64,000 bases of DNA, from assembly GCA_965655095.1 (NCBI GenBank), contig OZ296657.1:31186001-31250000 (forward strand), written 5' to 3'. Made by a program: the position numbers and the translations under genes. The stretch is from Haplodiscus bocki. Lineage: Eukaryota. This document shows positions 5,688 through 21,854 of this stretch, one piece after another (the first letter of the stretch is position 1; every line of letters starts with the position of its first letter). The notes below the pieces were generated by a model. It ran no database searches and was not told the DNA's origin. It saw nothing but the letters and a program-made list of their open reading frames with translations.

Positions 5688-5723
5688 AGTAGTCGGCTTA
5701 TTTACATGGTTTCTCGCAGGGCA
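5688..5723 (+). repeat. Left terminal inverted repeat core of the Polinton
   Basis: agtagtcggcttatttacatggtttctcgcagggca is the reverse complement of 21819-21854 with 3 mismatches. Confidence 0.95.
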
Positions 5724-5762
5724 TTGCCGGGTTTACTATATAAAGATTAGGAACTGAAATTG

Positions 5763-5836
5763 CCCGACCCGGCCCTGATTTGAACCGGGACCCTAGGATT
5801 ATCAACTTTGCGCAATAACTACTTAGCCACACTCCA
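5763..5836 (-). ncRNA. tRNA-like Pol III module in the left Polinton end (degenerate)
   Basis: The minus strand has an A-box TGGCTAAGTAG and a T-arm CCCGG-TTCAAAT-CAGGG (B-box GGTTCAAATC) at tRNA spacing. Acceptor and anticodon stems are not paired. Confidence 0.6.
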
Positions 5837-6748
5837 TCGTTTAAACGTAAATTTTTCCTCTGTAGGTTGTGATTCGCAATCTGAAAGTGACTGGGTTCTC
5901 TGATTTTACTTCGAACATTCCTCGCGATCAGCCGGTAAAAATATCGCTATTGAGAACAGCTGCAGTTATAGCTGGGAGTTTAACATTGATGATTTGGTCA
6001 GCTGTTGAAGATCATATAGCATTGAGTAACTTGAAAAACACACCTCATTTGTCTTTGTGTACCGAAAAATTCGATGCAGATTTTGACTAGCACTCTTTGA
6101 ACAAAAGTTTGTTTCTACTAGCTTGATGCCGAAGGTCCCGAATGCATATGTCCCGACCCAAACACGAAAGCGTTGAGAGAAATGTGGTGTACATAAAAAC
6201 ACTTTTCGGAGTACTTCAAAGGGATTTCTATCGTTTTTTTGTTAAAGACGAAAACAGAATGACTCACTAGTTAACTTTATGTTGCCAAAATCATTTTAAT
6301 ACTTCCTGGCGATCATCCAGTTATGAGACCTTTACTTTTGATAGATACTCTTTTGCATTTCCTCTAACATTACAGTAACTCTGTTACAATTATAGAAATT
6401 AGACCAAAACCAGAACGCGAATTCACTGTGTTTCACTTTCAACAACCCAAAATAGCAAAGCTTCATAATACAGCTCTTTGTTCTCATTGTTTTTCTGAGA
6501 CTCGTGGTTAAAAAACTAAACCAACTCCATTAAACAAAGCTTTAAAAAAACGGTTTCATGCCCGTTAGTCCTTTGCTGCCATCAACCAGTTGCAGAAAAG
6601 CGACGGATTTCCAACATTGGCTGGGGAAATCGAAACTGCGGAGATTTCTTCCACCAATCTTTTCTTCCAGAATTTTCAATCAACTTCTTTTGTCACTCCA
6701 GACCATCACCGTTCATTTTTTAGCGGTATTCTCGAGGCCGTTCAAAAC

Positions 6749-7230
6749 ATGAATACAGAATTTCAAGCTGTTCAGTTCAAAGGCTTCGGACCCAACATCA
6801 ACCAATCAGTCTCAAAGAGATCGATTTTCGGACTACATACCAAGACATTCTGCATTTGAGACCGCCCTCCGGTGAAAACAATATTCCGAAAGAAGTGAAG
6901 AAAAGCCTCCACTGGGTCACTGAACCCATACGCGGAATAGATTGGAACGCTGGAACACGTGATTACTCGTTCCTGTTAACATTCTTCACAAGTTTGGAAA
7001 TCCGCTTCGCCAACGCAGTTTTTTACGCCGAAGGTTACAAGAAGTAATTTTTGCTGCGCAGTTATCTTTTTCAAGTCGCAAATTTGGATTCAATTGGGTG
7101 TCCCAAAATCTGCGAATTTTCTCATTGTAATAAAACAATTCGTTACAATCATTTCTACCCCGAACACTACTTTGATCACTGCTCAAAAAGAGATTTTTGT
7201 ATTACCATTGGCTATTCAACAAAATACATT
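6749..7230 (+). pseudogene. Polinton accessory ORF, probable DEDD/DnaQ-like exonuclease-fold family, disrupted
   Basis: Joined frames read VQFKGF...RPP...LHWVTEPIRGIDWNAG..DY...VFYAEGYKK..L...VANLDSIGCPKI...H..DHC. This matches my recollection of a widespread Maverick ORF (F.PP..W..HG..W..G..Y..KG.EK..NLE..GCP). Confidence 0.5.
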
Positions 7231-8071
7231 ATAATGCCGTCAATCCAACCCACACCACAAAATCTTCAGCTACTCCTGTACCCGAATCTCGTTCTGCATT
7301 TGATGACATCAAATCAACCGATGGCCATAAGAGCGCTCAATAGCCAATTGCTAACAACGAACATCTGCCTCATCGAGGAGGAGATAGTGGATTTTGCTGG
7401 TCGTACCGTAATTAAGAAAGTGGTGATACAGTTGACCTCAGAAGAATTCAAATGTCTCAAAAAGCATAAATCCTGTCGAAGTCATGCTAAACTACACAAC
7501 TCATTACAGCAAAGAACATGGTGGTCTGAAAAAACAGATGGAAGAACAGAAAATTCAACCACTGCATCTAAAAATGAAAGGAACTGAATCAACTATTCTC
7601 TGGAAAAGTTGACCCGCTGTTACCCAAACAAATTCTTGAAGAAATAGTCTTTTTGGAAAACATACGGAAATTGCCATGTTCCGACCATCGCAAAGGACTA
7701 AAATCAGAAAATGTGATACTTCTAGTGATCTTTAATTGTGTACACGTGCGAAATAGTTTTATATCGAAATCAATTCGTGTGAAATCGTTTTTGTTCGAGA
7801 TGGAAGTCGAAGCAATTGATTCAGCCGAAAGAATACGGATTGAAAACCTCGTTTTCTACACTGGTCAAACCGTGAGAATATCATGGAAGTTCTGTACTTC
7901 AATGTCATTGCATAGTTCGGAAGTGTTGTTCTTAACTCAAGCGTTTGTCGTATCCATTTTTGAAATTGCCAGTCTGAAAATATTTATCTTCCCTCCTCTT
8001 CGCGAGGAACCGCCAAAAAGGTTGTCACTCCTGTTGGGAAAAACTGATTACATTTTCCATAATTCCAAACT

Positions 8072-18975: not shown

Positions 18976-20928
18976 TTTATTAAAATTTGAGAAAGACACC
19001 TGTCAACGAAGAACGAAAGTACCCCAGCGACACGAAAACGCCACAAAAAAACGTCGCCGACTCGGTCTACATTTTCCGGCAATCATTCATTGCTGCATCA
19101 TGAGCTTTGCAAGAAAGCTCGCAGGATAGGATGTTTTCATATACTGGAGAGTAGATCGCAAGTACTCAGTAAAGGATCCATGTGTGGCTTCAAATCGCAC
19201 CAACTCCCTTACTTGGTGCTGAAGGGTTCTTTTACCTCGTGAGATTTTCAAAAGTCTAATTAAAACATGAACGGATTAGAAACTGGACCGCTCAATGGAA
19301 AAACAGTTTTTCTTAGCTCAGAAAGAAGACTGTTTATGCAATTGATTTTCGCCACTGACAAAAGAAGCAAGCTGTAACCTACATGTAATCATACCAGATG
19401 CACAAGACAGTAGACAGCGGTACTGAAGCTGATGATGTTTTCACACTTATAGATTTCACTGCCATGAATTTGAGAACTATTTTGAAAAAAAATACCACTC
19501 TCATCTCATTTATATACAAAAATTTTGAAAAAATTGGTTCCCTCATTCGGAAGAACTTTCATCAATTTGTAACGCGAAGTGTAAAAAAAAACAAAAGCAG
19601 CAAACTTACACAGTTTATTGTAGTTCAATTCTTTTTGAGGGCGTTCACTATCACCTCGACAAGCGCAGCAGAAATGTTTTCGCTGCTGCTCACGGTGACG
19701 CCTTTCTTCACACCAACAAGTTGGATATTATGCTTAACCGTGGGCGATGCTACAACCTCTTTTTTTGCGGGACTGACATGAAACTCGACTTTTTAAAAGT
19801 TGTCCGAAGATTCATCTGCCGCAGTTTCATTTCTCAGATTCAATTTGAAGATGGACAATTTGGCATTTCTAAAGGCTGCTTCGATGGTGGAATTTGTATC
19901 CTTGGAACAACTTTCAACTAAACGAATGATTTCAGTTTCTTCAGAAGCGAACACATCAGCTTTTTTTCTATAATCACCAACGCTCAGAGGGAAACCTTTG
20001 ATAGGATTTTTCTCAGCCTTGCCTTTGGTCACGACTTCAATAATTTCCGGTTATTTTACGGGCAGTGCGCTATGGTAAACATCTTTTACAGCTTTCAATT
20101 TCCCGGCGTTGAACAAACGGCCCCACTGGGTTTTTGGTTCCCATTCTTTGGAAGTCCTTTTGTATCTGGGAGAATTGAAAAAAATTCTTTTGCTCAGTAT
20201 TAACACCTGAATGTAAGTAATATCTCAAAATCAGATTTTGATTCAATCGTTAAATATTTTTGAAGTTGTACCGAACAGGGGGTATTTGTTCAATCAATCA
20301 CATAGATTTAAAAGAATATATCTTTCGCGAGATCGAAGTTTTCCGCTGAGACAAATAACCGTAGTTGCCATTGTGCTTGGCAGGAAATACATCAGTGAAA
20401 GTTCTTTGGGATCTTTTCTGTAAACTCCCCCTAAAAAATTAACTCCCCCCACTTGAGTTATTTTTTTCCAGCATTAATCAAATGCCGTTCTCAGCTACAG
20501 CTAATATTGTCCTGCAATTTGATTGGCTGTTACAGTAAGCGTTTGTTTTTGATTACTCGAGTATCGCGAGTGATGTTTATGTAAAATTATGACGAGTTAT
20601 TTTCACTGAGGCGTGGGTTGCGATTTTGAATTTGTTAGTTTGACACGATTTTTAGGTGACTATTCATACAGCCTAAATTGAACTTTCGGTCTCAAACGGA
20701 CGAAATTGAATTTTCGGTCTTATACAGCCGAATTTTGGGAACTCTTCTGACACAGCCGAAAGTAAGTTACCGACAATGCAAAAAAAAATCTGACTACAAC
20801 AATATCAAATAATATTTTGAGGTCTCCGGTCCACGGTAATGTAAAATTTGTGCCTAATATTCAAAATTATGGATCATTTCTGCTCACCCCTTTCCCCCAG
20901 CTGATTTAATCCCCCTCCCCTCCCCCCC

Positions 20929-21042
20929 CACACACACCCCATAATGGATGTTCGAAATATTAAGCGGTGTAATGTTTTAACGCGCGCGAGTTAAAACATT
21001 ACACCGCTTAATATTTCGAATATCCATTATGGTGTGTGTGTG
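20929..21042. repeat. Near-perfect ~114-bp palindrome centred on CGCGCG (20983-20988)
   Basis: ataatggatgttcgaaatattaagcggtgtaatgttttaac and gttaaaacattacaccgcttaatatttcgaatatccattat are reverse complements. There are about 3 mismatches over the whole span. Confidence 0.95.
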
Positions 21043-21709
21043 TCTGGGGGGGGAGGTCAATAGAAAAGATATGTTATAGCAAAATTTATTATAACAAGAT
21101 AACATTTTTTCTTTTTCCTGGAAAAGACTTTTCGCAATTATTGTAATTTTCATTTCTGGGGGGGGGGGGGTGGTGAAAGAAGCTTCATTCGATCTGCGTT
21201 TTCTGTAAGAATCTTATTGCACCTCTCACTGTTTTGGTTTCGTTAATTATTTCAAACTGATTAACCATTGTCAAAGTTCGTGATGATCAAATGATTTAAT
21301 TTTTCGGCTCACTGCAACAGCCTATCAAATTGCAGGACAGAAATAACTTCAATTTTTCGCAACAGTCAATCAAATTGCAGGACAAAAATAACTGCAGTTC
21401 AGAATGCGATTTGATTGACTGTGATATTTGTTGTAATTGGGGGGAATTATATTTTGAGCTGCTACTGTGGGGGGGGGGGGGAGGAGGAGTTAACAGAAAA
21501 GATCCGTTATTTGATTTAGCACAGAAAATTTGAAATAGGTCAACGCAGTGTGGAAGGTATTCACTTCTTCCTATAGTATTGCAATCCACTGGGCTAGAAT
21601 CTTGGAAAATTATATTTCAGCTCCGCTGAAAGCGAAATTGAATCTGGAATTACTAAAAGCTTAAATTAGATTGACCTATTGATACGAAAAAAAACTTTCG
21701 TCCTTCCAT

Positions 21710-21782
21710 GCAGGTATAGCACAGTAGTTTCGTGTTTTGACTGAGACTAACAAAAGCCCCGGTTCGAGCCTCGCCACCTGCA
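21710..21782 (+). ncRNA. tRNA-like Pol III module in the right Polinton end
   Basis: A 73-nt cloverleaf-spaced unit: acceptor GCAGGT/ACCTGC, D-stem GCAC/GTGT, A-box TAGCACAGTAG, B-box GGTTCGAGCC, discriminator A, then TTTT at 21786. Anticodon and T stems are imperfect. Confidence 0.7.
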
Positions 21783-21818
21783 GACTTTTATGAAAAATGT
21801 TTAATGTAATCCCATGAT

Positions 21819-21854
21819 TGCCCAGCGAGAAACCATGTAAATAAGCTTACTACT
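21819..21854 (-). repeat. Right terminal inverted repeat core of the Polinton
   Basis: tgcccagcgagaaaccatgtaaataagcttactact followed by the TSD agcatc. Confidence 0.95.

Follow-up and report, generated by a model that had tools for sequence, protein, structure and literature searches.

Just inside both ends of a decayed Polinton in the genome of Haplodiscus bocki lie short, tRNA-spaced units that point outward into the host flanks. These units are best interpreted, at a probability of roughly 0.45, as tRNA-gene-derived Pol III promoters that may have been kept as putative TFIIIC/Pol III boundary sites on the DNA and not for the sake of a folded RNA. The observations that bear on this reading are the position of the units, their outward orientation, their presence throughout the family, a peak of conservation at the B-box, the loss of the cloverleaf, and the occurrence of intact tRNA genes in other Polintons. 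Because the promoter boxes have been kept and the tRNA fold has not, the units are predicted to be protein-binding boundary signals.

The window analyzed here is a 64,000-nucleotide stretch of contig OZ296657.1, and its positions 5688-21854 hold a decayed Polinton, as a first-pass annotation had proposed. Polinton/Maverick elements have terminal inverted repeats (TIRs) beginning with AG and a 6-bp target duplication. The window element has the ends AGTAGT...ACTACT, with arms of 49 nt (5688-5736 on the plus strand and 21806-21854 on the minus strand) that are 84% complementary and agree at 33/36 positions in the TIR core, and it is bordered on both sides by a perfect 6-bp target duplication, AGCATC (5682-5687 and 21855-21860). 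The group is further marked, in the available text of one source, by a DNA polymerase B and an rve integrase (PMC8502044), and the window element carries both as broken homologues of reading frames in a sister copy: the integrase at 9269-10199 (PF00665 in the sister frame) and the protein-primed polymerase region at 14763-17910 (PF03175). The capsid and packaging ATPase genes characteristic of Polinton/Maverick elements are likewise present and broken, all of these genes lying on the plus strand. The ATPase gene at 8089-8788 is matched by the natural reading frame of the sister copy (tblastn E 2e-54), which itself matches Pfam Pox_A32 with a score under its cut-off. The major capsid protein gene at 11408-12723 was identified by homology, its double jelly-roll fold being demonstrated on a relative (P0005) and not on the broken window gene; the model of that relative (pLDDT 91.5) matches iridovirus, PBCV-1, Sputnik and mavirus capsids. 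Another broken plus-strand gene, at 10213-11057, is homologous to a sister-copy reading frame and is presumably minor-capsid-like, a label given from its position.

Searches of the window with sister-copy reading frames gave no tblastn match for a cysteine protease, and the sister copy itself has no Pfam-confirmed protease. Nothing in the 30 broken reading frames of the window scored over a Pfam cut-off, a PDB sequence search returned no match, a first structure model was not usable (pLDDT 31), P0002 and P0008 had no match among viral contigs, and a phage collection gave none either. This decayed copy may perhaps be inactive. DNA contigs from public sequencing runs span the junction of left flank, TIR and unit and show no letter difference over 5696-5859, a comparison that covers few haplotypes and speaks for presence only.

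The two units lie inside the termini where they had first been described, the left at 5763-5836 on the minus strand (A-box TGGCTAAGTAG at 5819-5829, B-box GGTTCAAATCA at 5776-5786) and the right at 21710-21782 on the plus strand (A-box at 21717-21727, B-box GGTTCGAGCCT at 21761-21771). Their B-boxes, identified like the A-boxes by commonly known motifs, end at the nearly equal distances of 88 and 83 bp from the left and right terminus. The right unit retains the acceptor stem and D stem ascribed to it (6/7 and 4/4 pairs in the Rfam alignment) as well as a T4 run, a possible Pol III terminator, at 21786-21789 on the plus strand; downstream of the left unit there is only a T3 run, at 5757-5759. 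An A replaces G18 in both A-boxes. With 43/76 identical positions, the units are indeed more diverged from each other than are the TIR cores. Neither behaves as a functional tRNA gene: ARAGORN finds none in them, and the Rfam tRNA model scores the right unit at 16.5 bits (E 2.5; gathering threshold 29) and does not match the left. The layout of a type-2 Pol III promoter, with A-box, B-box, tRNA spacing and downstream T run, is found at the level of the family, the window copy itself being degenerate. Weak alone, the window units stand above chance because of the other copies and the genome-wide count of the pattern.

Eight left ends of the window family (W) were retrieved by whole-end, TIR or capsid queries and not by the unit alone. 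Across them conservation is highest in the B-box (82/88), compared with 70/88 for the A-box, 280/336 for the TIR core, 120/168 for the anticodon plus variable arm and 195/264 for the spacer; it is also the top window across all 10 left ends (101/110). The conservation value of the B-box is reached by 15 of 20,000 random draws of 11 columns, which are not independent because the copies share ancestry. Twelve promoter positions, picked after the alignment had been viewed and excluding G18 (5/8), are kept in 92/96 cells. At the right ends, which were not recovered for most W copies, the B-box is kept in 5/5, 83-89 bp from the terminus. A T4 run follows the B-box within 25 nt in 8/10 left ends, 4/5 right ends and 10/11 ends of family F, against a background of 0.30.

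These comparisons bear out the suggestion that the units belong to the design of the family, as other copies keep them at a fixed distance, outward, and with A- and B-boxes retained. Whether copies without the modules exist has a divided answer: the units are family-wide, but 4 of the 18 TIR-core matches (L020, L024, L025 and L031) are W-like ends without a clear unit. That the two ends encode two distinct RNAs, also suggested at the outset, is doubtful; the window units do differ, but because a left-unit model gives weak matches (13 bits, E 0.06) to two right units from other copies, both could derive from a single unit within a formerly longer inverted repeat.

Families D, F and B/B' have outward units as well; together with W, they span two capsid clades in a tree made by a quick method, with SH-aLRT support only and six rows less than half filled. 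The units of these families vary in sequence yet retain the boxes. Among B/B' ends selected solely by their TIR motif, a B-box with at most one mismatch is found in 25/30; the A-box is in place in 11/30 and missing there in 19/30. These units sit within young inverted repeats, so that passive carriage is possible. A young family-B end was matched in four listed public sequencing runs from one study, none of them listed as an RNA run. Units are absent from families A1, G, C, C2 and C3, as well as from two metagenomic elements whose ends are present, L238 and L265; as A1 and C are young, units are not essential for Polintons. Genome-wide, the pattern has 965 outward matches, mostly from one family group, versus 18 inward and 5 in a reversed control, and exact matches to the end motif number at least 734 in one family group that bears it. 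Treating all 965 as terminal units was rejected, the motif being an internal older terminus in 6 of the 7 end pairs compared. Hairpins of 200 bp, considered as MITEs, were also rejected, being the left ends of family A1.

An alternative, which we consider unlikely, is that the units function as Pol III genes through a short RNA product of about 75-95 nt, which would serve as an RNAi decoy or small-RNA precursor, comparable to adenovirus VA RNAs or herpesvirus tRNA-like RNAs. A-box, B-box, a spacing of 30-45 nt and the T4 run are retained jointly in W, D and F; some left ends have a second, inner unit; and in family A2 a split unit, about 260 nt long and with a T4 run, points inward. In family F, retrieved with a query that included the unit, a second, inverted B-box is kept at 108/121 and might pair with the first into a short hairpin. 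The pairing itself, however, has not been conserved: positions of the cloverleaf are 58.6% paired versus 56.1% in shuffled alignments (32/500), with the anticodon stem at 48%, so that the check for conserved stems proposed in the first-pass annotation turned out negative. Folding z values lie between -1.1 and +0.5 for eight units (-0.02 and -1.10 for those of the window) and at +0.18 for the A2 unit, and the adenovirus VA families of Rfam have no match in the window units at E up to 10. The units are also unlike between ends and between families, and the A-box is often out of place in B/B'. PKR is not known outside vertebrates, and the nearest named capsid relative of one clade is from an acoel. 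The VA-like structured RNA originally envisaged is thus not supported by the sequences.

TFIIIC bound near the terminus might instead aid replication, excision or integration, much as the host factors NFI and Oct-1 assist the adenovirus origin. Such a role, to which we give a low probability, would suit units at both ends with fixed polarity and a narrow distance between B-box and terminus (83-94 bp for the majority of W ends and about 54-58 bp for B proper), and a 277-bp deletion derivative of F retains both B-boxes. That derivative is a single copy, however, the distance varies by family, the box of B' lies some 700-950 bp interior to the true end, and young families lack it.

Neutral persistence is also improbable. 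Here a tRNA gene, either cargo or picked up with the addition of a new end, would have spread to both arms through inverted-repeat correction and would now be decaying. Intact tRNA genes do occur in metagenomic Polinton contigs, which come from other samples: of the 7 loci scanned, 5 lie above the Rfam cut-off, at 43-63 bits. Such genes are a likely source of the units. Host tRNA genes sit in large arrays (Arg, Lys and Thr only were recovered), many families have no units, and older termini nested within B' and A2 indicate that ends are rebuilt. Under even decay, however, conservation would not be expected to be higher in the B-box than in the TIR core and, at the same time, to have dropped in the anticodon arm to that of the spacer; moreover, the boxes persist across families with capsids of different clades. 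Isotype scores are best for Thr in most rows of left units and for Arg in one right unit; the units may also be Ser-, Asn- or Gln-like. Relaxed ARAGORN calls in L047/L088 (within an ORF), L065, L185 and L235 were rejected, and ARAGORN found no tRNA genes in the loci examined, whose true flanks are short, excluding L113 (a host tRNA-Lys) and the loci retrieved by tRNA search; there was thus no sign that the elements insert beside tRNA genes.

Independent SINE insertions close to the ends are already largely refuted and very improbable: a degenerate cloverleaf with A- and B-boxes is what a SINE head typically looks like and the genome has other tRNA-derived short repeats, but neither window unit has 7-bp direct repeats around it as a target duplication of its own, the tail and detached copies of a tRNA-derived SINE were not found, the unit offset is identical in all copies, and in searches that give lower bounds for detached copies every match fell at a Polinton end (4/4 and 4/4 in two unit-only DNA searches, and all 6 with a unit model on 912 kb of retrieved loci).

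For the preferred reading as boundary sites, a tRNA gene would have been captured into a Polinton inverted repeat and copied to both arms; the arms would then have diverged, and the captured genes would have been reduced to sites for TFIIIC/Pol III. The unit DNA would be bound by TFIIIC and probably also by Pol III, the bound factors would hold the Polinton ends open, and, as tDNA and ETC barriers suggest by analogy, the ends might form a border that keeps silencing out. The B-box insulator also raised in the first-pass annotation fits the conservation pattern, as far as sequence can tell. In the available text of the sources, TFIIIC-only B-box sites and tRNA genes serve as barriers (PMC12409998, PMC4502379, PMC2040200), and tDNA barrier activity is independent of orientation (PMC2040200), so that a barrier role by itself leaves the outward bias unexplained. 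More tentatively, animal Polintons may repeatedly have domesticated host tRNA genes as terminal TFIIIC/Pol III modules that insulate the provirus, along one path whose possible stages are intact cargo tRNAs, units reduced to the promoter and units reduced to the B-box.

The cis-acting signals of Polinton ends are poorly known, as is how integrated Polintons stay competent despite silencing. A putative conserved host-factor site at the ends is directly testable here, given the number of exact end-motif matches in one family group. No literature report of tRNA-type promoters at Polinton ends was found; ends of this kind may be described in Repbase entries or supplements. Among known systems, adenovirus VA RNA genes share a type-2 Pol III promoter within a related lineage of protein-primed linear DNA viruses. 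VA genes are internal, about 160 nt long and strongly folded, whereas the Polinton units are terminal, about 75-95 nt, and without conserved structure. Polinton-like viruses, virophages and MELD viruses contain tRNA sequences within the same broad group, but these, in the accessible parts of the reports, are intact and read as codon supply (PMC12220804, PMC6905037, PMC8502044), whereas the units of the window family are not recognized by tRNA finders, retain just the promoter boxes and are placed symmetrically at the ends. Barriers of the tDNA and ETC/TFIIIC type mark the two borders of a domain with B-box sites, which may or may not be accompanied by an A-box (PMC12409998, PMC4502379, PMC2040200, as far as their available text goes), and the mat2/3 region of fission yeast is flanked by inverted repeats bearing B-boxes (PMC12409998); these, however, are host loci with assayed activity, and the Polinton units belong to a mobile element and are known from sequence. 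The Helenus and Cassandra (TRIMp3) LTR retrotransposons carry tRNA- or 5S-derived sequence in both terminal repeats, with boxes A and B conserved and a functional RNA judged unlikely in the portion of the source available (PMC10886601). Their promoter yields the RNA template of reverse transcription and their copies are direct repeats (PMC10886601), whereas the Polinton copies DNA to DNA and its inverted, outward units are unable to transcribe the element; in place of direct LTRs with PBS and PPT in less than about 1.3 kb, it is a 16-kb element with inverted repeats and PolB. If the preferred reading is true, tRNA-derived promoters in terminal repeats would extend from retroelements, where they serve the template RNA, to an element that replicates through DNA and would require of them another role.

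The element at 5688-21854 of the window is a decayed Polinton. It begins with AGTAGT and ends with ACTACT, the 49-nt arms of its terminal inverted repeats (TIRs) are 84% complementary, and AGCATC is perfectly duplicated on its two sides. Its reading frames are broken; a younger sister copy has natural ORFs, with Pfam rve and DNA_pol_B_2 and a sub-threshold Pox_A32, that match the window collinearly and mark the broken remains of an ATPase (8089-8788), an integrase (9269-10199), a minor-capsid-like gene between integrase and major capsid, the major capsid itself (11408-12723), and a polymerase (14763-17910). 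The structure model of a capsid relative, P0005 (pLDDT 91.5), matches the capsids of iridovirus, PBCV-1, Sputnik, and mavirus; relatives with a species name are those of Convolutriloba macropyga, an acoel, and of a damselfly. The right arm (20400-21505) contains nested inverted repeats, including a hairpin with 68-nt arms at 20918-21053.

Re-examination of the window sequence bore out the first-pass annotation of two outward-facing tRNA-like units just inside the TIRs, at 5763-5836 (minus strand) and 21710-21782 (plus strand): their coordinates and tRNA-type Pol III promoter boxes (A and B), the B-box at 88 bp (left) and 83 bp (right) from the terminus, the 33/36 identity of the TIR cores, and the acceptor stem, D stem, and T4 run, a possible terminator, of the right unit. 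Taken singly, the window units are weak as tRNA-like genes. ARAGORN called a tRNA for neither, the right unit scored 16.5 bits against the Rfam tRNA model, the left had no Rfam match, and folding z was about 0.

The proposal that such units belong to the design of the element's own family, W, is upheld by its other copies. Copies were sampled by searches with the end, TIR core, capsid, and unit, with fetched neighbors added, and yielded 10 left ends that could be aligned plus 5 right ends, the window among them; L008 was excluded from the left ends because its flank is common with L003, and L007/L016 because their sequence stops just beyond the B-box. Outward units occur in W relatives: among 18 TIR-core matches, 9 have a unit or unit remnant, 5 are of the type of another family, A1, and 4 have no clear unit. 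Contig C2 holds a second full W copy with its own 6-bp duplication. Across the 10 left ends the A- and B-boxes are conserved and the best-kept 11-column window is the B-box (101/110). The TIR core is less well kept (343/420), and the anticodon plus variable arm (148/210) is at the level of spacer (239/340). Without two ends retrieved by a unit-only query, the values are 82/88, 280/336, 120/168, and 195/264, respectively, and random column draws attained the B-box value in 15 of 20000, which is no strict probability as columns share descent. All five right ends have a B-box (0-2 mismatches, 83-89 bp from the terminus), four with T4. In four left ends another A/B unit lies ~270 bp further inward; the window copy has none there. 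The cloverleaf is not conserved: pairing across left ends is 58.6% versus 56.1% when shuffled (32/500), and the anticodon stem is paired in 48%. The units are real at the family level, and their promoter boxes appear to be under selection.

On contig C3 (G000:C3:19388745-19527266; L003, L008, L052, L053) two W left ends with identical flanks point toward one another across 138 kb. The interval was sampled at two stretches, and each consists of tandem copies of a 1.6-kb fragment of the polymerase gene, possibly a Polinton-derived satellite. Older copies of W and of a further family, F, contain nested B'-type Polinton genes (L327-L329; L282-L283).

Other Polinton families of the genome carry comparable units. 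A pattern that joins a terminal motif to an outward B-box behind it matched 965 times versus 5 in the control, mostly in B/B' among the 100 matches listed; the inward version matched 18 times versus 2, and 8 of these 18 are a separate short repeat without adjoining Polinton genes. In B proper, the unit lies within a 161-bp inverted repeat and a 6-bp duplication is present. When B/B' ends were chosen by TIR motif alone, the first 30 of 734 had a perfect B-box in 20, one mismatch in 5, two in 3, and more in 2, with the A-box 43 nt upstream retained in 11. In 6 of 7 pairs compared, this motif marks an older end that lies 600-850 bp within a longer repeat. Eleven F ends, retrieved with a unit-containing query, keep the B-box (114/121), the A-box (101/121), and T4 (10/11), together with another B-box in inverted orientation (108/121), and Polinton genes adjoin 3 of 4 F stretches checked. 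Family D has a right-end unit (one copy). In A2, 3 of 4 stretches checked have an inward split unit, as at the right end L035:5588-5856 (minus strand; A-box, B-box, T4, split by ~190 nt, folding z +0.18). No unit was found near the ends of A1, G, or three C families.

A quick capsid tree gave three clades (W, D, G, A1, and A2; B and B'; the C families), and F, which is not in the tree, was placed by its 45-54% capsid identity to A1. Two of the clades have units, and parts of one lack them; either one old gain followed by losses or several gains would account for this.

These families vary in other ways. Family A1, which has the W TIR core and lacks the unit, bears a near-perfect 200-bp palindrome at its left end instead (L032:3650-3860); near its right end lies a ribosomal protein uS5-like ORF (Pfam Ribosomal_S5, S5_C; L033:7328-7807, minus strand; L045:2074-2550), 99% identical in a second copy and broken or diverged in two others. 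In copies of B' and A2 a longer repeat encloses an older AGTAGT end (L133, L134, L129, L130, L148, L149; L043:5730, 6388), and 30-bp tandem repeats sit in the B' extension. B and B' have a common inner end motif, whereas their gene orders differ and their capsids are 47% identical. A B'-type end block recurs every 3.28 kb at L271:1602, 4882, and 8160. A 277-bp deletion derivative of F (L274:1040-1316) retains both ends, each with its outward B-box, and has a 6-bp duplication that is nearly perfect. Distinct from these families is a repeat of 0.7-1 kb (L338, L340, L346, L348, from 1500) with two convergent tRNA-like units and no adjoining Polinton genes.

Among 82 metagenomic and viral loci bearing this capsid, relaxed ARAGORN flagged 8, and 5 of 7 scanned passed the Rfam tRNA cut-off (43-63 bits overall; L188:8865-8936, L191:7102-7173, L198:11882-11946, L204:5571-5642, L254:5357-5429). 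These intact genes (Asp, Met, and one other isotype) lie inside or beside Polintons: tRNA-Asp stands between Polinton genes in L188, L189, and L191, and in L198, L204, and L254 it comes after the final gene, close to where the contig stops, and may lie outside the element. Such cargo offers a source for terminal units. Terminal units are not universal among Polintons, since L238 and L265, the two loci with both ends, have no exact B-box. Host tRNA genes are arranged in large tandem arrays, each of a single isotype (Arg-TCG, Lys-TTT, Thr; G000:C7:23.68-23.78M, C4:107.9-108.1M, C11:32.1-32.2M).

The units are symmetric and outward-facing, with promoter boxes and T runs retained, the fold lost, and the A-box dispensable in B'. 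The most economical reading, to which we give a probability of roughly 0.45, is function at the DNA level as a barrier dependent on the B-box-binding factor TFIIIC, by analogy with tRNA gene DNA (tDNA) and B-box-only TFIIIC (ETC) sites. A captured tRNA gene would have entered the inverted repeat, been copied to both arms, and been pared down to a TFIIIC site. Both tRNA genes and ETC sites are described as TFIIIC-dependent barriers (PMC12409998), B-box sites work within the inverted repeats flanking fission yeast mat2/3 (PMC4502379), and one tDNA barrier is reported to require Pol III too, not orientation (PMC2040200). Production of a functional small RNA, which fits the retained boxes and T runs and fits poorly with the lost fold, is unlikely. 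Help in replication or integration, to which the terminal symmetry would be suited, is more doubtful still, as is a neutral relic, which is at odds with the apparent selection. Insertion of SINEs near the ends, which tRNA-like units might suggest, is scarcely credible: no direct repeat flanks either window unit, and no copies were detached, whether in unit-only DNA matches (4/4 and 4/4 at Polinton ends) or with a unit model across 912 kb of collected loci (6/6 at ends).

Searches of the article literature accessible without subscription, covering Polintons, Mavericks, adintoviruses, DNA transposons, and acoels, turned up no account of Pol III units at Polinton termini. Polinton-like viruses, virophages, and MELD viruses are described as carrying intact tRNAs (PMC12220804, PMC6905037, PMC8502044). 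The nearest design to the terminal Polinton units is that of Helenus/Cassandra (PMC10886601).
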